64,000 bases of DNA from a virus (IMGVR_UViG_3300026286_000004), one strand, 5' to 3'; positions 20,710-64,000 are shown, numbered from the stretch's first letter. Numbers and translations are program-made. Notes: generated by a model not told the origin, from the sequence alone.

Positions 20710-20745
20710 CGCCGCGTCCGGCGCCCTGTCCGGCAAAGAGCAGAC

Positions 20746-21123: not shown

Positions 21124-21458
21124 TGATCACCGTGACCGTCACCCCCGTGCTGATGACGATCTTCTTGATCGTTTTCTCGCTGGCAACGGGCGTGTTCAGC
21201 ACCTTTCTGCTGTTCTGGGCGCACGGCGGCGGCTGGCATCCGCTGCGCATGGCACGCGACATCGTCGACGACCTGCGGGCCGTCCAGGCAGATCCGGTCA
21301 TGATCGGCTACGCACCAACACTGGCCGTCGTGTTCGTCCTGATCGTCGTGTGGTGCGTGGTGCTGGCGACGTTCAGCACCACCACGCCCACGAGCAAGCC
21401 TGCCGCCGGGTTCCACCCGGTCCACGACATCATCGACTTCTTCCGAGGTGCCCTGTGA
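21123..21458 (+). CDS. small membrane protein (3 TM helices)
   Basis: GTG overlaps the upstream stop (GTGA). Hydrophobic helices present. Confidence 0.45.
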   Translation: MITVTVTPVLMTIFLIVFSLATGVFSTFLLFWAHGGGWHPLRMARDIVDDLRAVQADPVMIGYAPTLAVVFVLIVVWCVVLATFSTTTPTSKPAAGFHPVHDIIDFFRGAL

Positions 21459-35106: not shown

Positions 35107-35145
35107 GCGTAACGACCGTCGCTGACCGGCGTCATCTGCGGCATG
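35107..35145 (+). promoter_or_regulatory. class-1 start-associated motif (representative): GCGTAACGACCGTCGCTGACCGGCGTCATCTGCGGCATG
   Basis: GCGTAAC-N18-TCATC-N7-ATG. One of about 25-30 copies. Confidence 0.6.
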
Positions 35146-35890: not shown

Positions 35891-36877
35891 ATGATGGTCA
35901 ACAAGATCAAGGGCTACGCCCTGCTCGCCGCGGTAGCGGTCGTCATCCTCAGCGTCCTCGGATTCCTCATCTCCGGGACCGTGTCCGCGCAAGCCGACGA
36001 GGTCGCCGTGCACAAGGGCGGCGGCATCATCGAGTCGCCCAACTCGAAGGGCTGCGTGAAAGCGAACTCGCGCGAGATCCAGAAGCCCGGCGACAAATAC
36101 TTCTGGTACCCCGCGTCCCAGCGCACGTACAACTTCACCGGAGTCGAAGGCTCCGACCACGGCTCGTTCACTGTCGTGTCCAAGGACTACCAGCCGCTGT
36201 CCGTGCCGGGCTCGGTCGAGTTCACCCTGAACACCGACTGCGAGGTGCTGACCCGCTTCCACGACTCGATCGGCAACCGGTACTCCGCCTTTCACTCTGG
36301 CTCCGGAGACTGGTCGGAGACCCCGGACGGCTGGCGGATTATCCTTGACCTGTACTTCGCGCCCGCGCTCGACGCGACCCTGGACCGGGTGGCGAAGAAG
36401 TACACGTGGAAGGAGCTATACGCCGACCCCACGATCAAGGACGAGATGAACAAGACGGTCAACGAGCAGCTGGCCGCCCTGATCCAGCAGAAGATGCCCG
36501 GCGAGGACGAGTTCTTCCAGGGCTTCTCCGCGCTCATCCAGCAGCCGCAACCGGCGGAGACCCTCGTGACCGCCCTCGGCAATGAGGAGTCGGCGAAGGC
36601 TCAGGCGAATGCCGCCAAGGCGAAGGCTGTCGCGGACGCCGAGACGCAGCGTGCGAAAGCCGTCGCGGATGCCGAAGCGGCGAAGGCTGCCGCCGAGGCG
36701 CAGGTGGCGACGAAGGAGGCCGAGGCCCGGATCGCCAAGCTCGATGCCGAGATCCTCGAGCAGAAGATCAAGCCGTTCGGTTCCGTTGAGGAGTACAACA
36801 GCCACCTCGCGATCGAGCAGGGTCTCAACCCCTACCAGCCGACGTACGGCGGCAACGTCCTGACCCCGGCCAAGTAG
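35891..36877 (+). CDS. SPFH/band-7-like membrane protein (N-terminal TM, Ala/Glu-rich coiled-coil tail)
   Basis: TM helix LLAAVAVVILSVLGFLI. C-terminal AKAQANAAKAKAVADAETQRAKAVADAEAAKAAAEAQ. Confidence 0.5.
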   Translation: MMVNKIKGYALLAAVAVVILSVLGFLISGTVSAQADEVAVHKGGGIIESPNSKGCVKANSREIQKPGDKYFWYPASQRTYNFTGVEGSDHGSFTVVSKDYQPLSVPGSVEFTLNTDCEVLTRFHDSIGNRYSAFHSGSGDWSETPDGWRIILDLYFAPALDATLDRVAKKYTWKELYADPTIKDEMNKTVNEQLAALIQQKMPGEDEFFQGFSALIQQPQPAETLVTALGNEESAKAQANAAKAKAVADAETQRAKAVADAEAAKAAAEAQVATKEAEARIAKLDAEILEQKIKPFGSVEEYNSHLAIEQGLNPYQPTYGGNVLTPAK

Positions 36878-50131: not shown

Positions 50132-50703
50132 TACGCCACCAGTGACCGGATGCGTTGCACGATGCGCGGGTCGGCCTGCTTCGTGACAGGGACTGCCCGC
50201 CGCACGACACGCTCGAGCGCTGCGCCGTGGACCAGCCTCGCGGACGGGAACGTCGCCGCCCACAGCGACACCTTCCCCTCCCGCCGGGACGGCCACACGA
50301 CGACGACCGGGACGGTCAGGTGCACGTCATACATGGACAGGTACGCCGTGAACGCCTCCTGCGCCATCTGCACGGACTTCTTGTCGCACGCCGCGAACGG
50401 CTGGAAACCGCGGCGGGTCTTCCCGCCGAACGTCCACAGGAAACCCGGCTTCCACGACTTGCTGTCGATGAGCATGACGCGGTTGCTGGCGATGACCACG
50501 TGGTCGATGTTGATCGACATGCCGGGGATCGGGACACTCACGTCATGCATGACCGTGATCTCGGTACTGCCGGCCATCTGGTTGAGTACGTACGCGGTCG
50601 CCGCCTCGCCGCGGGTGCCGGCGCTGACCGTGCCCGCGTTCGTGGCCCACCTGGTGTCACCGGAGAGCGAGGTCGCGGCCCGTCCGATGATCTGCCCGCT
50701 CAC
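50131..50703 (-). CDS. NERD-like (nuclease-related domain) protein
   Basis: NIDHVVIASNRVMLIDSKSWKPG matches the NERD core. GTG start. Confidence 0.5.
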   Translation of the reverse strand: MSGQIIGRAATSLSGDTRWATNAGTVSAGTRGEAATAYVLNQMAGSTEITVMHDVSVPIPGMSINIDHVVIASNRVMLIDSKSWKPGFLWTFGGKTRRGFQPFAACDKKSVQMAQEAFTAYLSMYDVHLTVPVVVVWPSRREGKVSLWAATFPSARLVHGAALERVVRRAVPVTKQADPRIVQRIRSLVA

Positions 50704-50873
50704 AGGAGCCCCTGGATGATCCGGACGATGAACATCACGGCGAGGGCCGCGAGGATCACCATGACCACGGTCGATCCCGGTCCGTTCAGCCAGTTCGTGA
50801 CGTCATCGTTCGACCGGCCGGTGCCACCTGCCGGCGCCCGGTTGCCGATGTCGGTGCTGTTGTCGTCCGCCAT
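50700..50873 (-). CDS. small membrane protein (57 aa)
   Basis: AAAAGGG RBS. C-terminal TM helix VVMVILAALAVMFIVRIIQGLL. Confidence 0.4.
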   Translation of the reverse strand: MADDNSTDIGNRAPAGGTGRSNDDVTNWLNGPGSTVVMVILAALAVMFIVRIIQGLL

Positions 50874-50899
50874 ACCCTTTTCAATGCGGCAGATCGGGC

Positions 50900-51250
50900 G
50901 TTACGGCGGCGAACTCCCGGGCGGCGGGAGGGCACCTTCGCTCGCGCGACCACGGGAGGGAGCCCGTGCCGCCCGGCGTTGACAGCCGGTCAGACCGGCG
51001 CAGGTGCCCCGTCGTCCGGTGGGTAGGATCAGCCGTCTTACCCGCCGCCCGGGGTCCTACCCGGCATGAGTGCGGGGGCAGACAATCCAGCCCTCCGGGG
51101 AGAGGCAGCCTTCGGTTCGGGACCGAGGCCACACCACCACAGAGAGCCTTCGACGTCGCCGATGCCGTTAACAGCCGGACAGGCCGGTGCAGGCTGCCCT
51201 TCGGGGCGAAAGGGGAAATCTCCTACTCCCCGGAGGGCCGGTCTTGTCTT
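50900..51250 (-). ncRNA. candidate structured non-coding RNA or long 5' leader, transcribed from a class-1 promoter with no ORF
   Basis: On the minus strand, GCGTAAC-N18-TCATT (51259-51288) is followed by about 350 nt of GC-rich self-complementary sequence with no start codon. A long-range helix gccctccgggga...tccccggagggc is visible. Confidence 0.25.
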
Positions 51251-51302
51251 GCACCCGTAATGACGCCGGTGGCCGGAGGTCGTTACGCGCTTTGGGAAAA
51301 GA

Positions 51303-51347
51303 AATCCCCGGCCCGCAATGAGTGAGTGAGGGTGCGGGCCGGGGATT
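51303..51347 (-). terminator. rho-independent terminator (14-bp perfect stem, 16-nt loop, T-run on the minus strand)
   Basis: aatccccggcccgc-aatgagtgagtgaggg-gcgggccggggatt, followed by TTTT on the minus strand. Directly downstream of the 51354 stop. Confidence 0.55.
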
Positions 51348-51353
51348 CCCGGT

Positions 51354-51908
51354 TCAGGACGGGATGTCGATCCCGTGGTCGGCCAAGAGGTTCTCGAGCA
51401 CCGTGACCCGTGCTTCGGCGTCGCGGTGCAATTCGCCCGGGGTCTGCCCTTCGGACCAGCACGCCGCGACGGCGATCCGGTCGCGCACGGTACCGTCCGG
51501 GCCGGTGACCGGGTGGAGCAGGACGGTGGCCTGTTCGACGTAGTTCGGCGCGTCCGGGAACGCTTCCAGTACGGTCAATGCCCACGCCGCGAGGTTCGTC
51601 AAAGCGTCTTCCGGGGTGATGACGGTCGTCTGCCCGTCCTGGAGGCCCGTGACGAACGACCCGGCCGTCGTGTCGCCGTCGGCGGTTAGATCCTGGTATT
51701 CGTCGCGGACCTCGACGAGCGCCCATTCCGCGTCGGAGCGCCCGTTCGGGTTCGGGACGCGCAGCACCAGGTGGTCCCGGGCGGCCGGGTCAGCCTGGTC
51801 GATGACCGCCTCGGGCCATACCGTCCCGATGGCCCGGATCAGTGTCGCGGACAGGACCAGCGGAAGCGGGTAGGCGACCTTGATCGTCAGCCAGCCAGTG
51901 GTGTCCAT
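51354..51908 (-). CDS. hypothetical protein (184 aa)
   Basis: GGGAAGG RBS before the M21 start of the ORF. Confidence 0.5.
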   Translation of the reverse strand: MDTTGWLTIKVAYPLPLVLSATLIRAIGTVWPEAVIDQADPAARDHLVLRVPNPNGRSDAEWALVEVRDEYQDLTADGDTTAGSFVTGLQDGQTTVITPEDALTNLAAWALTVLEAFPDAPNYVEQATVLLHPVTGPDGTVRDRIAVAACWSEGQTPGELHRDAEARVTVLENLLADHGIDIPS

Positions 51909-51939
51909 GGGCAGTACCTTCCCTTCTGGATACTGGCGG

Positions 51940-53103
51940 TCACGCGACCGCAAGGATGACCTTTCCAAGTTCGTCGCGCATCCGCTGCGGGATGGCCGCG
52001 TCCTGCGGCTTCATCGCGAGCAGCGAACGGACGGCGGGGACGACAACATCCTTGCGGCCAGCGGCGATAGCGGAGTCGCACACGTCGATGGCGGCGTTCC
52101 AGCGGTTCAGCGTTGGGTTGTGGCCCATCAGGGCGACGATGGCCTGGGTGAGGGCGAACAGGACGTCCGGTGTGTCGGTCGTCCACTTCACGAGCGACGG
52201 GTCCGCGAGGACCGCTTCGGGGTCGTACAGGCCGCGGGCCTTGAACCACTGGAAGAACATCTTGCCCTCGCCTTCTCCGACGCACCCGTTGATCACGAGC
52301 ATCAGGGTGGGGGCGTCGCCACGGCGGACGTAGCGCAGCATCTTCTGCAGGTTGTCCCATGACCGGGGCGACGGCCAGGCACCGGAGGACTTGTCCGCGT
52401 CGGCCGGGCAGCCGGGGTCGATTTTGGACGGGTTGTGTTGGAGATAGCCGACAACGGCTGACGCATTGGCGAGCTGCTCCGCCTCGGTCGGGTTGCCGGT
52501 CAACTGCTCCAATGACGGGACGATCTCGTTGGCGAACCCGGACAGGACACCGTTCAGCCACGCCTCGCGGTCGAACTGCCACTTGCAGTGCCAGAAGCGG
52601 TTCGCTGTCGCGGGAGCCAGTTCCTGGCCGTTCACGGCGGACTCGGGCGGGTTCATCGCCGCGACCATCGAGACCGTCTTGGGGAGCTGGAAGTCGCCCG
52701 CGCACCGTTCCTGGATCACGCGGAGCATCCCGGCCTGCGTGGACGGCGGGACGGTGGTCAACTCGTCGAAGAAGATGGTCGCCTTCGGGGCGGCCGCGGC
52801 CCGGATCGCGAACGCCGGGACGGTGTTGACCGTGGTCGGCTGCGCGACCACGTCGCCGTTCGGCATTGTCGTGACATCGGAGATCACGGGCAGGCCGGAA
52901 AAGTCGACCGCCTCCCGGATCGAGCCGATCATCGTTTCCAGGTGACGGCCCCACGCGGCCGACCACTTGGTCAGCTGGGCGGTCTTGCCGATGCCCGGGT
53001 CGCCGATGAAGGCGGCGGGCACGTCCGCGAGGACGGCTGCGGCATACGCGCGCAGCATTGGTGTTCCGGGCAGGTTTTTCAGGTTCTCACTCATGCCCCA
53101 CAT
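51940..53103 (-). CDS. MoxR-like AAA+ ATPase
   Basis: Walker A GDPGIGKT and Walker B IFFDELT. Minus-strand class-1 motif GCGTAACGACGTGCGATCACCGGCGTCATGTGGGGCATG. The alternative start is 53094. Confidence 0.7.
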   Translation of the reverse strand: MWGMSENLKNLPGTPMLRAYAAAVLADVPAAFIGDPGIGKTAQLTKWSAAWGRHLETMIGSIREAVDFSGLPVISDVTTMPNGDVVAQPTTVNTVPAFAIRAAAAPKATIFFDELTTVPPSTQAGMLRVIQERCAGDFQLPKTVSMVAAMNPPESAVNGQELAPATANRFWHCKWQFDREAWLNGVLSGFANEIVPSLEQLTGNPTEAEQLANASAVVGYLQHNPSKIDPGCPADADKSSGAWPSPRSWDNLQKMLRYVRRGDAPTLMLVINGCVGEGEGKMFFQWFKARGLYDPEAVLADPSLVKWTTDTPDVLFALTQAIVALMGHNPTLNRWNAAIDVCDSAIAAGRKDVVVPAVRSLLAMKPQDAAIPQRMRDELGKVILAVA

Positions 53104-53130
53104 GACGCCGGTGATCGCACGTCGTTACGC
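53092..53130 (-). promoter_or_regulatory. class-1 motif on the minus strand: GCGTAACGACGTGCGATCACCGGCGTCATGTGGGGCATG
   Basis: 26 of 30 positions identical to the 37203 copy. Contains the helicase TAA stop. Confidence 0.6.
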
Positions 53131-54390
53131 AATCGGCTGGGAAAGAATCCGCTGCCGCACGGCGACAGCGGCCCGTTCCGCGCCGATCTTCACGAGCTGG
53201 GCCACGGACGTACTGTCGTGAACCCACACCAGTCGGGCCTTGTGCCGGGAGAGCATCACGCAAGTACGGCCCAGCGAGATTTGGTGCGACCCGAGGTCGG
53301 GTGCGCCAGTGATCGGGTCGAGCGCGACCACGACCGCCCACTGCCCGCCCTGCAACTTGTCCGCCGTGCCGATCGAGATCCGGGAGCGGCCCCTGGCGCG
53401 CAGCATCGCGGTGATCTTCGTGACCTGGGTGGACCGTGAAACGACGATGGCGATATCGGATTCGACGACCGTCCGCTGCTGGCCGTCCTCGACCAGGGTG
53501 TCCCCGAGGTGGGAGACGGCGAGATCGACAACGGCGCGCATCATCGCGGAGTCGTCCACCCCGTCCGGTTCCGGGACGGTGAAGTGGGCAACTTCGGGCA
53601 GCCGCGCACCGCCACGGGCGACGTACTTGTCCGGGCGCGCCGAACCGAACGGGAAGTCGTACAGCGGAGCGATCACCTTCGCTGAAATCTCGCCGAGCCG
53701 CCACGTAGCGTCCATCGTGTGCACCTTGGGTGTCACCCCGTACAGGTGCTCGAACGCTTCCGGGGAGCGGCGGTGCGGAGCGATCCGCATCGCCTCCCAT
53801 GCGGACGTGTCGGCGGTGATCACCGGACCGATCTGGCCGGGATCGCCAACCAGGACGAGCTGCGGGGTGTTCGCGGCAGCGGTCGCGACCTCATCGAACG
53901 GCAGCTGGTACGCCTCGTCGATGAGCAGCACGTCGAACTGCGGTGCCGACCTATGTGCCGTCAGTGACGCGCACGTCATTACTGACACCTTCGTGCCCGG
54001 CACGCCTGGCATGGGCTTGGTCAGGTGCTTCAAACCATCCGGGACGTTGCTTCTGCCTTCGAGGCGGACCATGCCGTCGGGCAGGTCCAGCGCGAGCCGT
54101 TCGGCGACCGCGTTGCGCTGTTCCGTCGTGAATGTTGCGACGCCGACGCGCAGGTCTCCGAACCCGGCGAGCCACGCCGTGAGGATGCCGAGCAGGTGCG
54201 TCTTGCCGCCACCGGGCGGCGACTTCACGATCGTTACAGCCGCGCCGCCGTACACGTCGGCGACAACCGCCGCGGCAACCGAACCGGGCACCAGGGTCGG
54301 CGGAGCCCAACCGGCTTCCGGCTCATCCTGAACCGCTTCCGGCTTGACGTTCTGCTCGCCAATCAGCCCGGCCAGGTCATCGAGATTCAT
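53125..54390 (-). CDS. SF1 (RecD/AAA_30-like) helicase
   Basis: Walker A SPPGGGKT, Walker B LLIDEAYQL and LVGDPGQIGPV. Minus-strand class-1 motif at 54388-54426. Confidence 0.65.
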   Translation of the reverse strand: MNLDDLAGLIGEQNVKPEAVQDEPEAGWAPPTLVPGSVAAAVVADVYGGAAVTIVKSPPGGGKTHLLGILTAWLAGFGDLRVGVATFTTEQRNAVAERLALDLPDGMVRLEGRSNVPDGLKHLTKPMPGVPGTKVSVMTCASLTAHRSAPQFDVLLIDEAYQLPFDEVATAAANTPQLVLVGDPGQIGPVITADTSAWEAMRIAPHRRSPEAFEHLYGVTPKVHTMDATWRLGEISAKVIAPLYDFPFGSARPDKYVARGGARLPEVAHFTVPEPDGVDDSAMMRAVVDLAVSHLGDTLVEDGQQRTVVESDIAIVVSRSTQVTKITAMLRARGRSRISIGTADKLQGGQWAVVVALDPITGAPDLGSHQISLGRTCVMLSRHKARLVWVHDSTSVAQLVKIGAERAAVAVRQRILSQPIA

Positions 54391-54444
54391 GCCCTACATG
54401 AGTGCGGTCAGGCGGCGTCGGCACGCATTTCGCGGGACCGATTT

Positions 54445-55041
54445 CTATCGGCCGGCGACCTTCTCGGCCCGGTCCAGGTCGGCGGACTCCTGTGCCGTCC
54501 CGCCACCGTTGACGAGCAGGTAGATTTCCGCTTCGGCGGCAACCGTCGACACCCGGCTCGTGACGACCGGCACCAACGCCCGGTTGCCGAGCAGCCGCCG
54601 GCCACGCTCGCTCAGGCCGGACCGGGTCGCGTACGGGCCGTCGCCGGTGTCGATGGTCTTCTCGACCCACTCGGGTTCCAGCCAGGACGCCGGGATCGCA
54701 ATCTCATTGTCCTCGAACGCCATCCACGCGGTCAGCCGCTGCTTGCCGTCGATGACGGCGTACATGTCGATGCCGTCGTTGAGCGGGTTTGGGCCGTCGG
54801 ACCACTCGTGCGTGCGGTCGTTGATGACGATCGCCGGGATCGGGACGCCGCGCAGGACCGACTCGATCAGCCGGACCTGCTGCATCGTCGTCCAGACCTG
54901 GCCGCGCTGGTACGGCGCGTCCAGAGTCATGCCGTCCCCCCGCACCAGCCGGGACAGCTCCGACAGCATCCGGGAGGAGGCCGGCAAGGACTGGTGCCGG
55001 ATCGGCTCGGTCGTCTGCAGCGTGATCGTCATGTCGTCCAT
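54445..55041 (-). CDS. DUF262/ParB-sulfiredoxin-like domain protein (DGQQR-like IDGKQRL)
   Basis: YAVIDGKQRLTAW. Minus-strand class-1 motif GCGTGCCGACGCC..CCGGCCTCATGGACGACATGACG. Confidence 0.55.
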   Translation of the reverse strand: MDDMTITLQTTEPIRHQSLPASSRMLSELSRLVRGDGMTLDAPYQRGQVWTTMQQVRLIESVLRGVPIPAIVINDRTHEWSDGPNPLNDGIDMYAVIDGKQRLTAWMAFEDNEIAIPASWLEPEWVEKTIDTGDGPYATRSGLSERGRRLLGNRALVPVVTSRVSTVAAEAEIYLLVNGGGTAQESADLDRAEKVAGR

Positions 55042-55072
55042 GAGGCCGGTCCGCCGGCGTCGGCACGCGGCG

Positions 55073-55504
55073 TCAGAGAATCCACGCCTCCCAGTAGAAC
55101 TTGACGGTCTCCGTCGAGGCGAGGGCGTCGGCGACGTCGGCCCAGGACAGCCCGCCGATGCCGCACCCGATCTGCGGGATCGCGACCCGGGCAATGCCGT
55201 TCGCGCCGGCCCATTCCGCGGTCGCTCGGGCCGCGTCGAGCACGAGACCGATCCGGGCGTCCCGGCCGGGCCAGACCTGGGTTGCCATGTTGATGATCGC
55301 CGGGCCAGTCTCCGGCTGCCAGACGTATATGCCGCCGGGGTGCAGGGCGCGGGAGTGGCATGCGTCCCGGTAGGCGGTCACCATGTCGGGGTGGCGGGCG
55401 GCGAACTGCTTCGCGATCCCGGCACCCATGACGCCGGCAAGGTTGACTCCATGTCCGAGGGCGGGCGCGTCCGAGTCGAACAGGTTGCCGCGCTTGACGA
55501 TCAT
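55073..55504 (-). CDS. macro-domain protein (ADP-ribose binding or hydrolase)
   Basis: GNLFDSDA..GHGVNLAGVMGAGIAKQF. Confidence 0.7.
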   Translation of the reverse strand: MIVKRGNLFDSDAPALGHGVNLAGVMGAGIAKQFAARHPDMVTAYRDACHSRALHPGGIYVWQPETGPAIINMATQVWPGRDARIGLVLDAARATAEWAGANGIARVAIPQIGCGIGGLSWADVADALASTETVKFYWEAWIL

Positions 55505-56028
55505 GCGGGAAGCCTTTCCAGGAACGCGCGGGCCTTAGCGATGTGCTCGTCGGTCAGTCCGGTGAACTGGTCGACCTGGATGACCAGGTGCGCGCTGCCG
55601 TGCTCGGCGAACATCTCCCGGTCGTCCGTGGTCGGCTCGTCGTCGAACCAGACGAACGGGCGGTCGCCGGCGACCTCGAGGATCCCGCGGCCTTTCGTGT
55701 ACTCGCTCATCTTCCGGTACGCGACCGGCAGCCCGCCGGGCAGCCCGATCCGGTTCCCGATCAGGTCGGCCAGGTCGGTCCACGTCGTCGCCCACGCCAG
55801 GTCGGCCAGGTCGGTCAGCGACAGCAGCCGCTGACCGTCGGCCGGGTCCAGACGCATCGTCCACGTCCTGCCGATCCAGTCTTCCTGGTCGTAGACGATC
55901 AGGCCCTTCTGGCTGGCTTCCGTGACCGGGATCCGGTAGCGGTTCAGGACACCGTCGATGTCGATGAACACGAGTGGACGCCGCTCGTAGGCAGAGTCGT
56001 CCAGCGTCTGTGCGCGTGAGTCCTTCAT
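55501..56028 (-). CDS. HAD-superfamily phosphatase-like protein
   Basis: Motif I VFIDIDGVLN. Confidence 0.55.
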   Translation of the reverse strand: MKDSRAQTLDDSAYERRPLVFIDIDGVLNRYRIPVTEASQKGLIVYDQEDWIGRTWTMRLDPADGQRLLSLTDLADLAWATTWTDLADLIGNRIGLPGGLPVAYRKMSEYTKGRGILEVAGDRPFVWFDDEPTTDDREMFAEHGSAHLVIQVDQFTGLTDEHIAKARAFLERLPA

Positions 56029-56038
56029 TACCGTTCTC

Positions 56039-56761
56039 TCACAATCCGGTCGGGAGGTGGTCGCCGGGGTGGCCTTCGACGCGGGTACAGCGCGGGGAGT
56101 ACCGGTCGCCGCCGAACCCACACTTCTGCGGCCTGTTCCAGAGCAGGCTGAACCGTTTCGCCACCGCCACAGCGACGTGCGCGCCGACAACGTCAGCGGG
56201 CTGGGTGGCGTCGACGATGATGAACCGCGTCGGGTCGTCGGCGGCTTGGGCGAGGAAGCCTTCTCGGACCTTCCTGTGAAAGTCGATGATCTTCGACTCC
56301 ATCCGGTCCTTCTGGCCGCGCTGACCGACTCGTTCCAGGCCGACCGCCGGGTCCAGGTCGAGCAGGATCGTCAGGTCCGGGACCAGGCCGCCGGTCGCGG
56401 TCATCGACATGTTCCACACCACGTCCCGGGTCAGGTGCCCGTCGGCGGTCTGGTACGCGACCGAGCTGTCGATGTACCGGTCGCAGATCACGTCCACGCC
56501 GCTGCGCAGCGCCGGCCACAACACCTGGTCGGCGTGGTGTCCGCGGTCCGCGGCGAACAGCAGCGTTTCGACGACCGGGGACAGGTGCTCGCCGTGCAGG
56601 ACCATCTGCCGGATCTCGCGGCCCAGGCCGGTGCCGCCCGGTTCCCGGGTCACCAGCGGTGTCCGGCCGGCGAGCCGGAGAGATTCCTCGATGCTTTTGA
56701 TGGCGGTCGTCTTGCCGGCACCTTCGATGCCTTCGACGGTGATGAACTTTCCGGTCGTCAC
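56039..56761 (-). CDS. tmk: thymidylate kinase
   Basis: FITVEGIEGAGKTT and a LID region REPGGT. GTG start coupled by GTGA. The N-terminal extension of the 397-aa ORF is rejected. Confidence 0.75.
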   Translation of the reverse strand: MTTGKFITVEGIEGAGKTTAIKSIEESLRLAGRTPLVTREPGGTGLGREIRQMVLHGEHLSPVVETLLFAADRGHHADQVLWPALRSGVDVICDRYIDSSVAYQTADGHLTRDVVWNMSMTATGGLVPDLTILLDLDPAVGLERVGQRGQKDRMESKIIDFHRKVREGFLAQAADDPTRFIIVDATQPADVVGAHVAVAVAKRFSLLWNRPQKCGFGGDRYSPRCTRVEGHPGDHLPTGL

Positions 56762-57195
56762 AAGATCACCCCACGGTCGATCAGGAGCGCGATGGAGAAC
56801 TTCTCGATCAGGTACCGGACGGTGCACGGCGCCATCTGGTCGCATTCGTTGCAGATCCCGGACACCGGGTGGTCGCCATCCTCGCCGAGCAGTTCGTCCA
56901 GAGCCCGCGACACGGCCCGGCCCGAGAACACCAGCGAACGAGCTTGCGTGACAAGGTCTTTCCGGTCGCTGATCCGGTACGCGATCCCATCCGCCATGTC
57001 GTCGAGGGAGTACGTGAACGCCGCCATCTCCCGGCCTTGAAGCGCCGGGTTGATCGCGACCAGCGCGTCGGTCACCTTCTGCACGACGCGGATGTCCGGG
57101 TCGCTCGTCGGCGCCCCGTCGGCGGTGTGCGTGACGATCACCAGGTCGCCCTCGCGGACCGCCCCGGCTTTCACGATGCGGGTCAAGGTCTTCAT
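56758..57195 (-). CDS. hypothetical protein with a C-terminal Cys cluster (CNECDQMAPC); tandem paralog of 57192..57605
   Basis: Begins MKTLTRIVKAGAVREGDLV, compared with MKTIFEQLTLDSTLAEGDLV in the neighbour. Confidence 0.45.
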   Translation of the reverse strand: MKTLTRIVKAGAVREGDLVIVTHTADGAPTSDPDIRVVQKVTDALVAINPALQGREMAAFTYSLDDMADGIAYRISDRKDLVTQARSLVFSGRAVSRALDELLGEDGDHPVSGICNECDQMAPCTVRYLIEKFSIALLIDRGVIL

Positions 57196-57605
57196 GGCAG
57201 ACGGCCAGCGTCGCGCAGTGCTGCCACGGCAAGCTCCGCGATCTCTTCGTGCCGTTCGCACGGTCCGACGGCGTTGCAGGTCCGGCAGCAATCAGTGCGG
57301 CGGTGCGAGGGCCACTCGTTCAGGATGTCGCGGACGAAGTTGTCCACGCGCGATCCGGTCAGGCACGTCTTCGCCTCGTCGACAAAGGCGGCCATGTCGT
57401 GGATGCGGACCGCGCCGTCGTCGACGAGAGCGCACAAATCCAGGACTCCGACCGTCACGCCGACGCCGTCGAGGTGCGGGTAGATCGCCTTCCACCCGTC
57501 CGACGGCAGACCGGCCGAACCCGGCTGCGCCCACGATGACGGCAGCACCAGGTCGCCCTCGGCCAGCGTGCTGTCCAGGGTCAGCTGTTCGAAGATCGTT
57601 TTCAT
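57192..57605 (-). CDS. hypothetical protein with a C-terminal Cys cluster (CCRTCNAVGPCERH); tandem paralog
   Basis: Minus-strand class-1 motif GCGTGTC-N18-TCATGGTGGTCATGAAA. Confidence 0.45.
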   Translation of the reverse strand: MKTIFEQLTLDSTLAEGDLVLPSSWAQPGSAGLPSDGWKAIYPHLDGVGVTVGVLDLCALVDDGAVRIHDMAAFVDEAKTCLTGSRVDNFVRDILNEWPSHRRTDCCRTCNAVGPCERHEEIAELAVAALRDAGRLP

Positions 57606-57775
57606 GACCACCATGAAGCCGGTCGTGAAGGATCGACACGCGCGGCCGGCCGTGCCGGGTCGCGAAGCGCCTGCCGGAACGACGCAGGCTTCCGGGCGCG
57701 CAGCCGCTGGGCGTCGGCCCGAGCCTGCAGCGCCCTCGCGGTCTTCTCCTTCCAGTCGGGTACCAAGTCAGTCAT
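57602..57775 (-). CDS. small coiled-coil ORF (57 aa)
   Basis: ATGA-coupled to the downstream gene. Protein-like composition. Confidence 0.3.
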   Translation of the reverse strand: MTDLVPDWKEKTARALQARADAQRLRARKPASFRQALRDPARPAARVDPSRPASWWS

Positions 57776-57887
57776 CGTCGCGCTTCCCGGGGAGACGGAT
57801 GATCACGATCAGCAGGACGAGCGCGGTCACCACTGTCGCGGCGCACGAGAGCGCGATGACACCGATCGCATACAGGACGGTCGCCAT
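57768..57887 (-). CDS. small membrane peptide (39 aa)
   Basis: MATVLYAIGVIALSCAATVVTALVLLIVIIRLPGKRDDD. The start overlaps the recG stop (TGATG). Confidence 0.3.
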   Translation of the reverse strand: MATVLYAIGVIALSCAATVVTALVLLIVIIRLPGKRDDD

Positions 57888-60520
57888 CACGCGCTCATCA
57901 GCCACGCCGCGGCTTCCTCTCCGACCGCCGCGGCGACCTCGGAGCGCAGGCCGGGCCGGCGCACCAGGTGCGGGTCGTCGCGTGTCAACGCTGCCGCGTC
58001 CTCGTTCGCCCACGCCAGCAGCTTCGTATCGTTCGTCACTGACGCGACCCGCAGGTCCCGGCCCGTTCCGGACTGGGTCGTTCCGAGCACCTGACCGGCG
58101 CCGCGGATCTCCAGGTCGAGTTCGGCCAGGGCGAATCCGTCGGTCGTCGACACGATCGCCTCCATGCGCTGCTTCGCGACGGCGGTCTTCGGGTCGCCGA
58201 CGAGGATGCACCGCCCGGACGCATGGCCGCGCCCGACCCGGCCCCGTAGCTGATGCAGTTGTGCGAGACCGAACTTCTCCGCCCCGAGCACCACCATGAC
58301 GGTCGCGTTCGGGATGTTCACGCCCACCTCAATCACGGTGGTCGCGACGAGCACGTCGAGCTTCTTCGCCGCGAAATCGGCCATCGTCGCGTGCCGGTCC
58401 GCTGGGGTGTCCTTGCCGGTGATGACACCGATCCGCATTCCGGCCAGCGCGCCGATGACGAGCTGCTCCGCGGTCGCGTGCGCGGCGGCGGCCTCTCGGG
58501 TCGCAGAAGACGTCACCAGCGGGACGACGACGAATGCCTGATGGCCGGCGTCCACTGCGGTGCGGACCGCGGCCCACGCCATCGACGCCGGGTCCATCAG
58601 GTCGGCCTGGTCGCCGCTGATGTGGTGGGTCAAGATCGGGGTCCGGCCGGGCGGCATCTCGTCCAGGACGGACAGGTCCAGGTCGCCGAACGTCGTCAGC
58701 ACGGCGGTTCGCGGAACCGGCGTCGCCGAGGCGTACAGGACATCCGGGACCCGGACCCCCTTCGCGCGCAACGCGGCCCGCTGCTCGACGCCGAACCGGT
58801 GCTGCTCGTCGATCACGGCCACCGTCAGGTCGTGGAAGACCACCTTCTCGTCCAGCAGGGCGTGCGTGCCGATCACGATGTCGATCGAACCGTCAGCCAT
58901 CCCGGCAAGGGTCTCCTTGCGCTTCTTCCCGGTGACCTTCCCGGTCAGCAGGCGCACCTGGACCGGTTCGCCGTCGGCCTTCGTCAGCCCGGACAGCGAA
59001 TCCTCGACGTCCTCGAAGTGCTGGAGCGCGAGGATCTCGTTCGGCGCGATCATCGCGGCCTGGGTGCCGTTCTCGACCGCTCCGAGCATCGCGATCAGGG
59101 CCACCAGCGTCTTGCCGGACCCGACGTCTCCCTGCAGCAGGCGGTGCATCGGCGCCGGGACGGCCATGTCGTTCAGGATCGCCGTCACGGCGCGCTGCTG
59201 TGCCCCGGTCGGGGTGTACGGCAGCGACGCGAGGAAGTCGCGCATCAGGTCACCGGTCAGGACGTGCGCGGTCGCCTCCTGGCCGCTGTTCGCTGCCTTG
59301 GCGGCCGAGATCACCAGTTGCAGCCGCAGCAGTTCGTCGTACGCGAGCCGGTCGCGGCCGGACTGCGCCTCATCGGCATTGGCCGGGTCGTGCACCATCC
59401 GGTACGCGGACGCCCGGTCCGGCAGCCCGTGCTCGCCGAGCAGTTCCGGTGGCACCGGGTCGATCATCGACCCCAGGCGGCGGGCCGCTTCCCGGGCGGC
59501 AGCGAAAATCTGCCACGTCGCCAGCTCATTCACCCCGGATGCCGGGTAGACGCCGATCATCTTCGCGGACGATTCGACGATCGGTTCCGCGAGTGGGTTC
59601 GTCATCCCGAACCCGTTGCCGCCGTCGCTGTAAGGGAACGTCTCGAGCTTGCCGTGCATGATGACGCGCGTGCCGACGGGGATGCGCCGGCCCAGGCCGC
59701 GGGCATGGAACCAGCGCACATGCAGGTACGTGCCGGCGTCGTCCCGGATGGTTGCCTTGCTCATCGCGCCCCGCTCCTTCGGGACCTCGAGCTTCGTCAC
59801 CGTCCCGAACACGGTCGCGGTCGTGCCGGGCACGAACTGTCGCACCTGGCCCGGCGAGGTCAGGTCGATGTACCGGCGCGGCAGGGTGTGCAGCAGGTCG
59901 TGCACGTTGCTGATCCCGGTGGCGTGCATCGCGTCGGCGATCACCGGCGAGACGGCGGCCAGCTCGTCCAGGCCGACCCCGCGCAGGCCGTCGATGTTGC
60001 CGTCGAACGGCAACGGCGGCAACGCCTCGGTCGCGACGACCGGGTTCTTCTCGCACCACTGCACGATCGTCTCGGGCACCTCGCACCAGCCGACGGGGGA
60101 GCCGGCCTTGACGAGCGCGTGCGACGGCAGCAGCCAGCAACTGTCGGCCTTGCGCCACATCGCGGTCGCCCCCATGTGGGAGCGCACCAGGTCCGGGCCG
60201 TCCAGTCGTGGGTGCACCTCGACCAGTGACGGGTCGCCGGGACGTGCACGTGCGGCCGCCTTCGCAAGCCCGTTCAAGGCGGCCGGCCGGCCGTCCGGCC
60301 CGATCACGGTGATGCCCGCTTCGGTGAAGGTCCGGTCCGGGTTCTTACCGGTCGCGGTGATCGTCCACGACTTGTCGGCGTCGTTGAACTGCCGCCCCGG
60401 GAAGCGCTTCACCCATTCACGCAAGGATTCTCCCGTGATTGCGTGGATGTCGTGGTAGCCGAAGTACAGCACGACGGCAGGGGTGTACCAGCTGCCGGTG
60501 ATCTCCGCTTGTGCCGTCAT
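57887..60520 (-). CDS. recG: ATP-dependent DNA helicase RecG
   Basis: GDVGSGKTLVA, DEQHRFG and the wedge and helicase domains. Class-2 GGCAAAGAG 5 nt before ATG 60520. Confidence 0.85.
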   Translation of the reverse strand: MTAQAEITGSWYTPAVVLYFGYHDIHAITGESLREWVKRFPGRQFNDADKSWTITATGKNPDRTFTEAGITVIGPDGRPAALNGLAKAAARARPGDPSLVEVHPRLDGPDLVRSHMGATAMWRKADSCWLLPSHALVKAGSPVGWCEVPETIVQWCEKNPVVATEALPPLPFDGNIDGLRGVGLDELAAVSPVIADAMHATGISNVHDLLHTLPRRYIDLTSPGQVRQFVPGTTATVFGTVTKLEVPKERGAMSKATIRDDAGTYLHVRWFHARGLGRRIPVGTRVIMHGKLETFPYSDGGNGFGMTNPLAEPIVESSAKMIGVYPASGVNELATWQIFAAAREAARRLGSMIDPVPPELLGEHGLPDRASAYRMVHDPANADEAQSGRDRLAYDELLRLQLVISAAKAANSGQEATAHVLTGDLMRDFLASLPYTPTGAQQRAVTAILNDMAVPAPMHRLLQGDVGSGKTLVALIAMLGAVENGTQAAMIAPNEILALQHFEDVEDSLSGLTKADGEPVQVRLLTGKVTGKKRKETLAGMADGSIDIVIGTHALLDEKVVFHDLTVAVIDEQHRFGVEQRAALRAKGVRVPDVLYASATPVPRTAVLTTFGDLDLSVLDEMPPGRTPILTHHISGDQADLMDPASMAWAAVRTAVDAGHQAFVVVPLVTSSATREAAAAHATAEQLVIGALAGMRIGVITGKDTPADRHATMADFAAKKLDVLVATTVIEVGVNIPNATVMVVLGAEKFGLAQLHQLRGRVGRGHASGRCILVGDPKTAVAKQRMEAIVSTTDGFALAELDLEIRGAGQVLGTTQSGTGRDLRVASVTNDTKLLAWANEDAAALTRDDPHLVRRPGLRSEVAAAVGEEAAAWLMSA

Positions 60521-60573
60521 ATTTGCTCTTTGCCGCTGCACGTCGTTCCGGCGGCACCGCACACATACTGGGC

Positions 60574-61212
60574 ATGACGACCCCGTTCAACGAGAGCGAT
60601 CATCCGCGCGGAGCAGGTGGGCAGTTCGCGCCGAAGGCTCGCTCGGAGCAGGCCCGGCTGGACGCTCCATACGGCGACGGGCACCCGTGGAACCAGGATG
60701 CGGAGCAACGGGAACGGTTGGAGGTCGAGCTGGCTGGGCAGATCGCCGCGTTCCCGCATTTCGTGGCCGACCCGCGAGCGTGCGCCGCGCGCATCTTCCA
60801 GATCGTCGCCGTGTACCGCGGTGTCCCATCCGAGGTCGCCGAAGCCGCGACACCGGATGCCGTGGCGGCAGCCAGCCGCGGCGGGCCGTCCGGCGAGGGG
60901 ATGTACCGGGCGATGCTTCCGGTGATCGACGCCGCCCAGGCCCGCGAGTACGCCCCGAAACCGCAGCCGGACCGGATCCCCGACGTCCCGACGCTGAGAG
61001 AAGTCGAAGCCGCGAAGGCGTACCTGGATGCGCTGGAGCCGGTCCGGCAGATGTACCGGCCCGACTGGGAGCGGAGGAACGGCGGGTACGGGCCGACCGT
61101 CGCGCAAGTTCGCACACATGCCCATGAACGCTCCTTACAGGATGACCGGATCCGTGCCGCGAAAGTCGAGTACGACCGGCTGAAGGCGGCCTACGACGCC
61201 GCGAACGGCTAG
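60574..61212 (+). CDS. family-X N-terminal module protein (213 aa)
   Basis: N-terminus MTTPFNESDHPRGAGGQFAPKARSEQARLD. Promoter variant CCGCACACATACTGGGCATGACGACC. Confidence 0.55.
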   Translation: MTTPFNESDHPRGAGGQFAPKARSEQARLDAPYGDGHPWNQDAEQRERLEVELAGQIAAFPHFVADPRACAARIFQIVAVYRGVPSEVAEAATPDAVAAASRGGPSGEGMYRAMLPVIDAAQAREYAPKPQPDRIPDVPTLREVEAAKAYLDALEPVRQMYRPDWERRNGGYGPTVAQVRTHAHERSLQDDRIRAAKVEYDRLKAAYDAANG

Positions 61213-62489
61213 CTGTCGAACACGACCAGGTACCGCAGCGCAACCTGGTCGATCGGGGTGATGACTTCCTGGTTGAGGACGTTGCACGTTCCCGCCCGGA
61301 CGTGGATCGAGTCGAACCGGCGGCCCTTGGTGTCGCTGACCTTGCCGCGCAGGATGTCGTCCCACACGTACTGGCCTTTGCGGTCCGGGAGGCACTCGTT
61401 GCCCATGATCACGTCGGCGCTGAACATGAACCACTGCCGGTCGACCCCGGACGACCAAACCCCGCCCGCGGCATACCCAGCCGCCTTCGTCGACGTTTCG
61501 GACGTGTACACGCAGTTGTAGCCGCCGAACATGTTGCCGGCCAGGCCGACGGTCGAGATCGACCCGCGCGGCACGAACCCGGTCGTCAGGATCGACAGCA
61601 CGTTGTGGTTTCGGGTGCCGTGCCAGTTGCGCTGGACGTTCCCTAGCTTCGCGGCGAGGGCGTCGAACTGGTCGGCCTTACGGGTGTCGGTGATCTCGTA
61701 CGCGCCGACGAGCTTCGCGCCTGTGACGCGCGCCGAATGCTGGGCTTTCACGGTCGAGGTGAACCGTCGGCCCAGGTCATCCATGACCTTCCCGTCGCTG
61801 ACGGGTGCCAGGCGGTACCGGAACAGCGCCAGCGGGTCGATGTCAGCGCCGGCTTCCTCCTTGACCAGCCCGACCTGCACGGAGGCACGCAACCGGTCGA
61901 GGAAATCAGCTTGTGCCGCAACCTGATCGGGCGTGACCAGGAAGTCCTCATGCCAGCCGCGGCGCGCACCGACCTGCTGCGGGATCAGCCGCAGGTACCG
62001 TTCCAGGTTCTCGATGCGGGCGCTGCCGGTCAGCTTCGGCAGTTCGTTCAGCAGCACCGCAGCCTCATCGATCGTGCGGGTCGTGACCAGCCCGAGCGGA
62101 GTGGTGACCTGCCCGTCCCGGACAGTCATCCGTCCGCCGGAGATGTTCGCGATCTGGTGGGCGTTCGAGGCGACCAGCCGGTCGATCAGGGCGACCACGG
62201 ACGGGTCGGACACGGACGCAAGACCCTCGCGCGCCAACGATTTCAGGGGTGTGTCGTCGCTGGTTTTCGCCGCGTGCGCGGTGACCGTCTTGACTTCGCT
62301 GTACCCTTCGCGCGTCTTGGACCGCACGAGCCGGTCGAACGTGTGCTGCCCGCCGGGATACGGCTTGGTCCGGCCAGTGTTCCCGACTCGCCCCCAACGG
62401 GCGTGCACCGTATCGCCGTCGAGGCGCAGGTGGTAGAACTTGTTGTTGTTCTCCTGCGTGTTGACCTTCACGAGCATGATCTCGCTCAT
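61209..62489 (-). CDS. PARP-like ADP-ribosyltransferase (WGR domain, helical domain, ART domain with an H-Y-E triad)
   Basis: WGR motif NKFYHLRLDGDTVHARWGRVGNTG. Catalytic motifs NWHGTRNHNVLSILTTGF, GNMFGG..STKAAGYA and LNQEVIT. GGGAGAGAAG RBS before M17. Confidence 0.7.
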   Translation of the reverse strand: MSEIMLVKVNTQENNNKFYHLRLDGDTVHARWGRVGNTGRTKPYPGGQHTFDRLVRSKTREGYSEVKTVTAHAAKTSDDTPLKSLAREGLASVSDPSVVALIDRLVASNAHQIANISGGRMTVRDGQVTTPLGLVTTRTIDEAAVLLNELPKLTGSARIENLERYLRLIPQQVGARRGWHEDFLVTPDQVAAQADFLDRLRASVQVGLVKEEAGADIDPLALFRYRLAPVSDGKVMDDLGRRFTSTVKAQHSARVTGAKLVGAYEITDTRKADQFDALAAKLGNVQRNWHGTRNHNVLSILTTGFVPRGSISTVGLAGNMFGGYNCVYTSETSTKAAGYAAGGVWSSGVDRQWFMFSADVIMGNECLPDRKGQYVWDDILRGKVSDTKGRRFDSIHVRAGTCNVLNQEVITPIDQVALRYLVVFDS

Positions 62490-62583
62490 CGCTTCTTCTC
62501 TCCCGAAAGCACTTGTGCTGCAAGGTTTCGCAGCCACCGGGCGGTGTCACTCAGGCCGTCGCGGAAAGCCTGCGCGGCAGCCC

Positions 62584-62955
62584 TCAGATGACCTTCGCGA
62601 CCGCGGCGTCCACGATGTCGGAGATCATCTTCGACAGGTCGTCGACGGTGACCGTGAACAGGTCTGTCGTCTCCGCGACCCGCTCGGCGGTCTTGACCAT
62701 CGCCAAGTGCCGGACGCCGTGCTCGTCGATGTAGTCGTGGCCCTCGTCGCGGTGGTCGGTCCAGGTGGACTTGACCGTCACGAGGCGGCCCTTCTCGGTC
62801 AGCCAGTGCTTCTTGCTGACACGCCATCCGAGGCGCGGATCGGTGCCGGACGCGACGCGCTGCGTCGGGACGCCGAGGTTGTGCAGCAGCTCTCGCATGG
62901 TGTTGATGAGGCCGACCTTGGCGGTCGCAAGGATCTGGTCGGAAACGCTGTTCAT
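62584..62955 (-). CDS. hypothetical protein (123 aa)
   Basis: AGGAGC RBS. An upstream class-1 motif (GCGTAAG-N18-TCATA) sits about 40 nt before the start, with a short hairpin in the leader. Confidence 0.5.
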   Translation of the reverse strand: MNSVSDQILATAKVGLINTMRELLHNLGVPTQRVASGTDPRLGWRVSKKHWLTEKGRLVTVKSTWTDHRDEGHDYIDEHGVRHLAMVKTAERVAETTDLFTVTVDDLSKMISDIVDAAVAKVI

Positions 62956-63060
62956 GGGTTCTGCTCCTAATGGTTCGGGGTGCTTCTACCCCTTATGACG
63001 CCGGTCGCCGATGATGCTTACGCTACCGGGGAGGTCTGACAGTCCTCGGGCCAGAAAACG

Positions 63061-64000
63061 TTACGCAGCAGTCGATTTCGTCAATTCCTCGCGATCCACG
63101 ACGACCGTTTTGATCCACTCCGGCAGCGGGCAGCACCACGGGCTCTCAACGTTGTCGGTGACGACGACGGCGACCACCGGAATGTCGTTGATCATCTTGT
63201 TGGGCCAGCCCGTCCCGCCGTCCGTCGCGCAGATCACGACATGCGGTCGCGGCTTGAGGTTGCACGCCTGCTCGATGGCGCGGGCCATGTCAGTGCCACC
63301 GCGCCCGGTGACCTGCTCCATCGTCTTGCGGCCCTGGTACTTCTTCACGTCGTAGATGTGCGTGTCGGCGTCCACGACCCGGAAGTCATCGCCCCTGATG
63401 CCCATCCGCTTCGCAATCGCCTCGCACTCACGGGACACGGCGGCGAGGTCTGCCTGCCCCATCGACCCGGAGGTGTCCCGGATCAGGATGATCTGTGGGA
63501 CGGGGCGGACCAGGCCACGGTTCGGTGACTTCCGGTCGCCGAGCATCGTGTACTGGCGGCGACGGTTGGGACGCTGGAACGTCGTGTCGTCATACCCGGA
63601 GCGCCACGCCTTCGCGCGACGGATCGTCTTGCCGAGCACCGTCTGCCACGGCACCTTCGACGGACTCATGTGCTCCTTCGCGGTCCCCAGCAGACCGGCC
63701 GGGACGTTGCCGATGCCCTTGCCCTGATGGTCGAGGATGTTCACCGCGGTGTCGAGAATCGTCGCTTCGATCTCGACCGGAGACACGCCCTGGACCGGAT
63801 TCTCGCCGTCATCGCTGCCGGGAACCGGCATGCCTCCTGCCCCCTGCCCGCAGCCGCTGAACGTGACTTCCTGGCCGCAGTCCGGGCAGCACTGGCCCTG
63901 CTGACCGCCCTGGCCCTGCTGACCACCCTGACCGCCCTGGCCCTGCTGACCACCCTGACCGCCCTGACCGCCCTGGCCCTGCTGACCGCCCTGACCGCCC
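63061..64000 (-). CDS. von Willebrand factor A (vWA/MIDAS) domain protein; frame open to the window edge through a Gly/Gln-rich repeat and CPDCG
   Basis: MIDAS motif LIRDTSGSMG, plus GGTD and ATDGG. M at 63831 is the only internal start. Upstream in frame lies (GGQ/GQQ)n..QCCPDCGQEVTFSGCG. Confidence 0.6.
   Translation of the reverse strand, partial: GGQGGQQGQGGQGGQGGQQGQGGQGGQQGQGGQQGQCCPDCGQEVTFSGCGQGAGGMPVPGSDDGENPVQGVSPVEIEATILDTAVNILDHQGKGIGNVPAGLLGTAKEHMSPSKVPWQTVLGKTIRRAKAWRSGYDDTTFQRPNRRRQYTMLGDRKSPNRGLVRPVPQIILIRDTSGSMGQADLAAVSRECEAIAKRMGIRGDDFRVVDADTHIYDVKKYQGRKTMEQVTGRGGTDMARAIEQACNLKPRPHVVICATDGGTGWPNKMINDIPVVAVVVTDNVESPWCCPLPEWIKTVVVDREELTKSTAA

Follow-up and report, generated by a model that had tools for sequence, protein, structure and literature searches.

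Does a mobile element that encodes a poly(ADP-ribose) polymerase (PARP) together with a macrodomain protein possess a dedicated writer and eraser of ADP-ribose, or do the two genes serve separate ends? We asked this question of a 64,000-nucleotide stretch of DNA recorded as viral (IMGVR_UViG_3300026286_000004; its full length is called the window below), which carries a PARP gene and a stand-alone macrodomain gene on the minus strand of one locus. Our analysis indicates that the two most likely represent separate ADP-ribosylation functions, which travel as cargo of one element and are not an obligate pair. With somewhat more confidence than doubt, we read the PARP as a break-activated writer that would serve the element's own DNA metabolism, and the macrodomain protein as an independent hydrolase resembling AdfM of phage T4.

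The PARP gene and the company it keeps

The 426-aa product is a true enzyme of the PARP1-3 type, in which a WGR domain is followed by a helical regulatory domain (HD) and an ADP-ribosyltransferase (ART) catalytic domain (Table 1). Pfam placed the WGR domain at aa 4-67 (E 3e-11), its PARP catalytic model matched aa 245-364 (E 1e-11), and PHROG 23333 covered the full length of the protein (E 1.5e-55). A profile built from 34 PARP sequences aligned over positions 7-430 with the WGR-HD-ART chains of human PARP1 (7s6h and 4dqy, E 5e-43). The AlphaFold2 (AF2) model (pLDDT 83, pTM 0.76) contains a beta-rich WGR domain, helices at aa 80-222 and an ART domain. Its best fold matches in the PDB, found with Foldseek, were the WGR-HD-ART structures of PARP2 and PARP1 on DNA breaks (E 1e-19 to 1e-21, with 486-498 columns aligned). 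The Pfam model PARP_reg stayed below its threshold in this protein, and the HD is supported by the profile, the helices of the model and the Foldseek matches. No PADLOC or NCBIfam model matched the PARP protein.

The motifs HARWGRVGNTG, NWHGTRN and NQEVIT are all present, and the WGR motifs RWGRVG and NNNKFY are conserved in the family. Residues H290, Y328, K335, Y339 and E408 are invariant across the 34 aligned homologues. In the profile, the WHG motif falls on H862 of PARP1, Y328 on Y896, K335 and Y339 on K903 and Y907, and E408 on E988. Thus, the WGR, helical and PARP catalytic domains that an earlier note on this DNA had read from the sequence were recovered by Pfam, profile and structure alike, and the H-Y-E residues that it had pointed out align with the human triad. 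Two bacterial relatives, HaPARP of Herpetosiphon and CdPARP of C. difficile, synthesise poly(ADP-ribose) (PAR) in a DNA-stimulated manner (PMC5966428). Judging from them and from the shared architecture, the window protein would likewise be activated by DNA breaks and may produce PAR.

The gene lies in an open reading frame (ORF) at 61209-62537 with a GC content at third codon positions (GC3) of 0.87, and its ATG at 62489 is preceded, at a distance of about 10 nt, by a GGGAG-type ribosome-binding site. We rejected an upstream GTG start, which would give 442 aa: the 426-aa ATG start is on record and the longer form is not. An identical 426-aa product was called on at least 24 metagenome contigs from JGI, ENA, Logan and NCBI (the longest, from NCBI, of 161 kb, and one from JGI of 128 kb), with the same neighbours.

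Bacterial PARPs, which the earlier note had called uncommon, are so in relative terms but not in absolute ones. A protein search in which 8000 candidates were scored gave at least 131 clusters of homologues at E 1e-5, and the gene was located on 74 IMG/VR contigs, many of them 150-480 kb long. A search of genome contigs, which used a single narrow peptide pattern, gave 5 loci. Homologues with 28-37% identity occur in the jumbo phages Xanthomonas XacN1 and Xoo-sp13, Stenotrophomonas CM1 and Klebsiella FBKp34. Others reside on megaplasmids of Tsukamurella (302 kb), Variovorax (about 800 kb), Pseudomonas and Vibrio (about 900 kb), as well as in Leifsonia sp. Leaf264 and Nocardia altamirensis. Both settings have been described before: bacterial PARPs of the WGR-(reg)-cat type, including an actinobacterial clade, are documented (PMC5966428, PMC4245714), and PARPs in jumbo phages have been noted (PMC7824862, PMC9503650).

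For the analysis of PARP neighbourhoods, ORFs within 10 kb of 83 loci were clustered; at 90% identity these loci form 72 non-redundant groups, to which the counts below refer. An ATP-dependent DNA ligase is found in 11 of the 72 (in 8 of these on the same strand and at most 1 kb away) and a T4-type RNA ligase in 8 (in 6 of these within about 1 kb). Overall, a polynucleotide ligase lies within about 1 kb of the PARP gene in 14. Further recurrent neighbours are metallophosphoesterases, a dNMP kinase, topoisomerase II and Thg1. The PARP gene of the Variovorax megaplasmid adjoins genes for SSB, a Rad52/22 protein, a helicase and a 3'-5' exonuclease. The two closest relatives of the window PARP (59-60% identity) are found at loci L008 and L176. 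In L008, a 60%-identical PARP again adjoins RecG and p212, two neighbours that are also present in the window; in L176, the PARP gene lies 0.6 kb from a homologue (37% identical) of the HAD_SAK_2 gene of the window. The consistent theme of this company is nucleic-acid end processing and repair, which fits a WGR-mediated break sensor.

The same distribution bears on the idea that the PARP takes part in host takeover or anti-defence: like T4 Alt/ModA or AcrIF11, it would modify proteins of the host (RNA polymerase, nucleases or defence proteins) and would not be a sensor of damage to the element's DNA. The concentration of the family on jumbo phages and megaplasmids would suit such a role, as would the other ARTs or SIR2 genes found near some PARP loci, and Iyer et al. 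have proposed that phage PARPs act on host proteins like phage ARTs (PMC7824862). However, the WGR domain and the autoinhibitory HD are kept intact and the WGR motifs are invariant, although a constitutive modifier of host proteins would have no need of them. Additionally, the genes around it serve replication and repair and are not of the early or host-shutoff kind. We consider this explanation quite improbable.

Hyperactivation of PARP1 depletes NAD+, and so do bacterial NADase defences. By analogy, the ends of phage DNA might hyperactivate the window PARP until NAD+ is exhausted and the cell dies, with the macrodomain protein limiting self-damage. In favour of such an abortive infection system, the PARP gene is plasmid cargo, and relatives lie near a DUF2397-type gene in Leifsonia and a Schlafen/AlbA_2 gene in Nocardia. 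Nevertheless, most members of the family are themselves carried by phages, the neighbours that are conserved encode ligases and repair proteins, and PADLOC does not recognise the protein. This explanation deserves hardly any credence.

The stand-alone macrodomain

The second gene encodes, as the earlier note had recognised, a macrodomain of a hydrolase class: a stand-alone protein of 143 aa in the TARG1/DarG (ALC1-like) class, detected by Pfam and by matches to DarG. Its AF2 model has a pLDDT of 97. The closest solved structures by sequence (phmmer) are DarG macrodomains, from M. tuberculosis (5m3i, E 3.6e-16) and T. aquaticus. With Foldseek, DarG again came first (TM-score 0.87, 32% identity), followed by TARG1, Poa1p and SCO6735. 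The PADLOC model of DarG matched with E 9e-31 through its macro part only (positions 4-131 of 329), and the NCBIfam DarG model gave 94.9 bits against a cutoff of 250. The protein lacks the C-terminal DarT-binding domain, and neither DarT nor DUF4433 was found among the called genes of the window.

Gln76 of the macrodomain occupies the column of the catalytic Lys80 of DarG (Lys84 of TARG1). Together with Asn21, it is invariant in all 33 aligned homologues and in 80 of 80 viral relatives from IMG/VR; the Gln is also present in all PARP-linked macro copies. The window protein carries the motifs HG(V/C)N...MG(A/S)G...(S/T)Q..(P)G...IG.GIGG of a family of stand-alone proteins of about 145-175 aa. 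T4 Tk.4 scores 89.9 bits on the hidden Markov model of this family and has the same Gln. Members were found in 195 records of phages (among them rV5-like and FelixO1-like coliphages, Campylobacter phages and large actinophages) and in 117 of plasmids. No conserved partner gene was detected near the 80 viral macro loci, where whatever resembled a partner was an antisense shadow of the macro gene itself.

What such a protein might do can be judged from its studied relatives. SCO6735 of S. coelicolor takes ADP-ribose off DarT-modified thymidine in DNA and off Glu-modified PARP1, and both reactions require the equivalent residue, Gln85, which a conserved Asn holds (PMC9411070). Tk.4 (named AdfM, for anti-DarT factor, macrodomain) is the single T4 gene required for resistance to DarTG2, and its clean knockout sensitises the phage (bioRxiv 10.1101/2025.11.20.689424). 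An orphan macrodomain of the Lys type, PhiKZ gp104, strips DarT2 marks from DNA (PMC13309987). By sequence, the window protein is most likely a Gln-type stand-alone hydrolase of the T4 Tk.4/AdfM family. By analogy, its most likely role would be to remove DarT2-type thymidine-linked ADP-ribose from DNA, an AdfM-like counter-defence: it would strip the modification that DarT2-type toxins of the host place on the element's DNA and so protect the incoming element.

A quite different activity has to be weighed, namely that of a Poa1p-like ADP-ribose-1''-phosphate phosphatase, which would work with HAD_SAK_2 in RNA repair or the clean-up of NAD metabolites and would have nothing to do with macromolecular ADP-ribosylation. 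The stop of the HAD_SAK_2 gene overlaps the start of the macro gene by 4 nt, phage databases label the family 'phosphatase' or 'A1pp', Poa1p is among the fold matches, and the window contains an RlaP gene. Still, the protein matches DarG far more closely than it does Poa1p, and the adjacency to HAD is not conserved in the 80 viral macro loci. Moreover, RNA ligase, KptA/Tpt1 and 2H phosphoesterase are not among the window genes, and T4 Tk.4 shows a DarTG2 phenotype. We regard a phosphatase of this kind as very unlikely.

Writer and eraser, or two functions

The earlier note had read the locus as a minus-strand cluster running from the PARP to the macrodomain gene. The RecG, Tmk, HAD and two Cys-containing paralogue genes that it placed between them are indeed there, and the setting is one of DNA repair, as it described, and of nucleotide metabolism. 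Its DUF262 gene, by contrast, lies directly downstream of the macro gene. Nor is the cluster purely minus-strand, as a conserved plus-strand gene, p212, splits PARP from RecG. The stop codons of p212 and PARP overlap tail to tail in a CTAG palindrome, and this convergent arrangement could provide antisense regulation of PARP. RecG and p212 diverge across a spacer of 53 nt. A sigma-70 promoter/terminator scan, uninformative at the 68% GC content of the window, gave no terminator between PARP and RecG. The motif of actinobacterial RecA-independent damage-inducible promoters (TGTCRGTG-N7-9-TANNNT) is absent from the window.

Were the two genes the dedicated pair envisaged in the earlier note, the PARP would modify repair proteins or DNA ends at breaks and the macrodomain protein would act as its cognate eraser, closing a regulated, reversible cycle. 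The survey does not bear this out. In the window, the genes are 5.7 kb apart, with the opposite-strand p212 between them. None of the 80 viral macro loci from IMG/VR has a PARP gene within 10 kb. With a distribution roughly ten times as wide as that of the PARP (for which there are 9 phage and 23 plasmid records), the macro family occurs nearly always without it; the Paenarthrobacter megaplasmid pYJN5-1, for example, carries the macro gene and no PARP. The macro gene is also missing from the contigs, which are short, of the two closest PARP relatives.

When erasers of any kind are counted, at least 10 of the 72 PARP loci have one within 10 kb, with an E. coli YmdB sequence as the MacroD probe and one Tsukamurella sequence as the ARH probe; in the other 62, none was detected. 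The PARG signature GGG-X6-8-QEE occurs in 0 of the 72. Among the called genes of the window there is no PARG, ARH or second ART, nor any PARG/DUF2263 or ARH3-like enzyme that would degrade PAR chains; therefore, a full PAR cycle is not encoded there.

Several observations weigh against our reading of two independent functions. Every copy of the element has both the PARP and the macro gene, running in the same direction. The same macro family is found within 10 kb of PARP in 6 of the 72 loci; in three phage loci the two share a strand and are no more than about 2 kb apart, and in one of these (L047) only 253 nt separate them. Macro genes near PARP were seen in four phage loci in all, one of the matches (L059) being weak and on the opposite strand. 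In Leifsonia sp. Leaf264 (L013), a chromosomal or island PARP is followed by two Gln-type macro genes (14682-15470 and 20593-21066), and on the Tsukamurella plasmid a distance of 5 kb separates PARP from an ARH hydrolase gene. Enzymes of this class can act on the products of PARPs: TARG1 and SCO6735 remove PARP-made Glu-linked ADP-ribose, and TARG1 removes the ADP-ribose that PARP3 attaches to 5'-phosphates of DNA (PMC9411070, PMC8385414). Read-through co-transcription from PARP to RecG is possible, because no terminator was found and the RecG/p212 spacer is so short. Finally, evidence on Gln-type macrodomains of phages and plasmids comes from the genetics of T4 Tk.4 only, the biochemistry being that of the more distant SCO6735, and we found no report in the literature of an in vivo function for a bacterial or phage PARP.

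Two of these loci have features of their own. The jumbo-phage locus L047/L057 (IMG/VR 3300009502_000028 and 3300025162_000016, about 9200-14900) brings together within 6 kb a Gln-type macro gene, the PARP gene downstream of it, a metallophosphoesterase, a DNA ligase and an ARH, the fullest ADP-ribosylation toolkit among the loci examined. One of the two Leifsonia macrodomains is extended at its N-terminus by about 120 aa, and both have Gln at the family's otherwise near-invariant H18.

By a rough estimate, the proximity of PARP and macro genes is modestly above what chance would give in 300-kb genomes and far from obligate. Some functional interplay is possible, but the two are probably not a dedicated pair, an arrangement that we regard as unlikely. 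The counter-defence role suggested in the earlier note as an alternative suits the macrodomain well, and its nearest experimentally studied relatives (DarG and T4 Tk.4/AdfM) act on DarT-modified DNA.

In the reading of two separate functions, which we favour, the WGR domain of the PARP would bind a nick or an end of DNA, and this binding would relieve the autoinhibition exerted by the HD. The ART domain with its H-Y-E triad would then use NAD+ to ADP-ribosylate the PARP itself, nearby proteins and/or phosphorylated DNA ends. Marks of this kind might hand the element's breaks over to ligases and to RecG, encoded nearby, for processing. As regards architecture and catalytic residues, this scheme follows the observations given above; as regards DNA dependence, targets and the choice between poly- and mono-ADP-ribosylation, it draws on PARP1-3, HaPARP and CdPARP. 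Beyond its probable role against DarT2-type toxins, the macrodomain protein may remove the last protein- or DNA-linked ADP-ribose that the PARP leaves behind, as TARG1 and SCO6735 do in vitro.

A bolder proposal, to which we assign a low probability, would unite the two genes in a reversible DNA-end ADP-ribosylation system of large mobile elements. The PARP would cap 5'-phosphorylated nicks or ends with ADP-ribose during transfer or replication; the caps would keep host nucleases away from the ends or make these ready for the ligases that are often adjacent, and the macrodomain protein would uncap them. If true, this would be the first physiological role for DNA-end modification of the PARP type.

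The carrier element and comparison with known systems

Gene calls based on GC3 divide the window into a plus-strand block (1-45489) and a minus-strand block (45680-64000), the latter containing the PARP and macrodomain genes. The features discussed here are collected in Table 1.

Table 1. Positions of the discussed genes and domains in the window
Feature	Position	Strand	Remarks
Class II (B12-dependent) ribonucleotide reductase	5779-9033	+	Intein inside; Hint / Intein_splicing matches at aa 372-500
YAcAr (SLOG) protein	20746-21126	+	
RlaP nucleotidyltransferase	35143-35832	+	
Band_7 protein	35891-36877	+	
NERD nuclease-related gene directly upstream of FtsK/SpoIIIE gene	45680-50703	-	FtsK/SpoIIIE product 1483-1538 aa
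MoxR-type AAA_5 ATPase	51940-53103	-	
DUF262/GmrSD_N-only protein	54445-55041	-	198 aa; directly downstream of macro; Pfam GmrSD_N E 2e-14; PADLOC NsnA E 4e-14
Macrodomain protein	55073-55504	-	143 aa; stand-alone, TARG1/DarG (ALC1-like) class; Pfam Macro E 5e-12
HAD phosphatase (HAD_SAK_2)	55501-56028	-	Pfam 28.9 bits, cutoff 27.5
Thymidylate kinase (Tmk)	56039-56761	-	240 aa; Pfam Thymidylate_kin E 1e-42
c145, small Cys-containing protein	56758-57195	-	Paralogue of c140
c140, small Cys-containing protein	57192-57614	-	Paralogue of c145; no family match
39-aa ORF	57768-57887		Not mentioned in the earlier note
RecG helicase	57887-60520	-	877 aa; Pfam DEAD, Helicase_C, RecG_dom3_C, RecG_wedge
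p212, between PARP and RecG	60574-61212	+	212 aa; plus-frame GC3 0.80; called in all copies
PARP	61209-62489	-	426 aa; Pfam WGR and PARP, PHROG 23333, PDB profile, AF2/Foldseek
PARP, ART catalytic domain	61212-61823	-	About aa 223-426; triad H290, Y328, E408
PARP, helical regulatory domain	61824-62252	-	About aa 80-222
PARP, WGR domain	62280-62489	-	About aa 1-70
p123, directly upstream of PARP	62584-62955	-	123-aa ORFan, co-directional; GC3 0.90; called in all copies; likewise not in the earlier note
DUF2201 VWA/metallopeptidase protein	63061-63831	-	

Two small genes flank the PARP. On its upstream side, p123 has no family match and only one distant relative (55% identity) among 1.8 billion representatives. 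Weakly similar p123-like ORFs adjoin the PARP gene in L008 and L176, and p123 could be a PARP accessory factor. On the other side, p212 has a homologue (40% identical) beside RecG in L008. The N-terminus of p212 contains a conserved 'DHPRG.GG.F' motif. The window RecG matches the NCBIfam RecG model over aa 185-868 (E 1.7e-207) and has an additional N-terminal region of about 185 aa before the wedge domain, for which no family match was found. A Rhodococcus opacus plasmid carries RecG too. The paralogues c140 and c145 are 27% identical (BLASTP, E 5e-11).

MoxR-type AAA_5 and DUF2201 genes are usually neighbours. In the window, they bracket a block of about 10 kb that runs from an SF1 helicase to p123, which suggests that the PARP/RecG/macro block was inserted between them. 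In other copies of the locus (L002, L003 and L005), a gene of 458-515 aa stands in place of the DUF2201 gene, and IS605 and IS21 insertions are found upstream.

That the carrier is mobile, as the earlier note assumed, is upheld by genes in common with megaplasmids of Micrococcales, Paenarthrobacter pYJN5-1 among them: the NERD-FtsK pair, AAA_5, HAD and macro genes all have homologues there with 35-43% identity. The NERD-FtsK pair, likely a DNA-transfer backbone module, recurs on megaplasmids of Arthrobacter, Paenarthrobacter and Curtobacterium at 35-36% identity, and a type IV coupling protein is likewise encoded on pYJN5-1 (440 kb). Genes for capsid, portal or tail proteins were not seen in the 64-kb window. 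Nor was the element among the viral contigs that IMG/VR yielded for the PARP family, although JGI metagenomes contain it. Because of the genes shared with Micrococcales megaplasmids and the lack of phage structural genes, we read the carrier as an actinobacterial (Micrococcales-like) conjugative megaplasmid-like element; a phage-plasmid or a jumbo phage is a conceivable alternative. Near-identical DNA is absent from the phage and plasmid collections, the sole match being a 183-nt stretch of RecG on a Rhodococcus plasmid.

The YAcAr, RlaP and Band_7 genes of this plasmid-like element make up a set that is characteristic of jumbo phages. A Band_7 gene also lies near PARP homologues in L007 and L009. 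Other window genes encode ThyA, a DHFR-phosphoesterase fusion, RNase_T exonucleases, an NAD-dependent ligase, a DinG-like helicase, M78 peptidases and an AAA_10 ATPase.

In general, the PARP and the macrodomain protein are new, divergent members of known families, and neither result alters current concepts. WGR-PARPs of bacteria and phages have already been catalogued, and two are active in vitro. What the locus and its relatives add is the setting. Very large mobile elements (jumbo phages and megaplasmids) are the main home of the PARP family, whose genes sit there within modules for replication and repair, often next to a DNA or RNA ligase or, in the window, to RecG, and this gives a testable hypothesis of break sensing for the element's own DNA. 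A Gln-type macrodomain on actinobacterial megaplasmids suggests that protection against DarT matters for plasmids as well as phages.

Compared with human PARP1, PARP2 and PARP3, the window enzyme has the same WGR-HD-ART domain order, the same triad and equivalents of the acceptor-site residues K903 and Y907. Unlike them, it has no zinc fingers, BRCT domain or N-terminal tail, measures just 426 aa and is about 17% identical in structural alignments. The WGR-(reg)-cat architecture and the triad are also shared with bacterial WGR-PARPs such as HaPARP, CdPARP and the actinobacterial clade 2.6 (Garcia-Saura 2018, PMC5966428; Perina 2014, PMC4245714). Its relatives from actinobacterial isolates (Leifsonia sp. 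Leaf264, Nocardia and the Tsukamurella plasmid) are, however, only 36-37% identical to it, which is as close as any sequenced isolate comes, whereas metagenomic relatives reach 59-60%. It differs from the bacterial enzymes also in its megaplasmid-like carrier, the adjacent RecG and the lack of a PARG nearby. With jumbo-phage PARPs (PHROG 23333) it shares full-length similarity, at the identities given above, and the location in a replication/repair region; in contrast to theirs, its 64-kb surroundings hold a conjugation-type NERD-FtsK backbone and no phage structural genes.

The macrodomain protein resembles T4 Tk.4/AdfM in being a stand-alone domain of about 150 aa with Gln at the DarG K80 column and with the HG(V/C)N and MG(A/S)G motifs. 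The two are 26% identical, and the window protein belongs to a plasmid-like element of a high-GC host. DarG (5M3I, 5M31) is its best match in both sequence and structure, and the Asn is conserved between them, but the window protein has Gln in place of Lys80, no DarT-binding domain and no adjacent DarT. Human TARG1 and SCO6735 belong to the same ALC1-like class. The Lys84/Asp125 dyad of TARG1 is absent from the window protein. In the case of SCO6735, the similarity is marginal (phmmer E 0.08; Foldseek TM-score 0.82) and the mobile loop is longer, yet the Gln at the Lys position (Gln85) is common to both.

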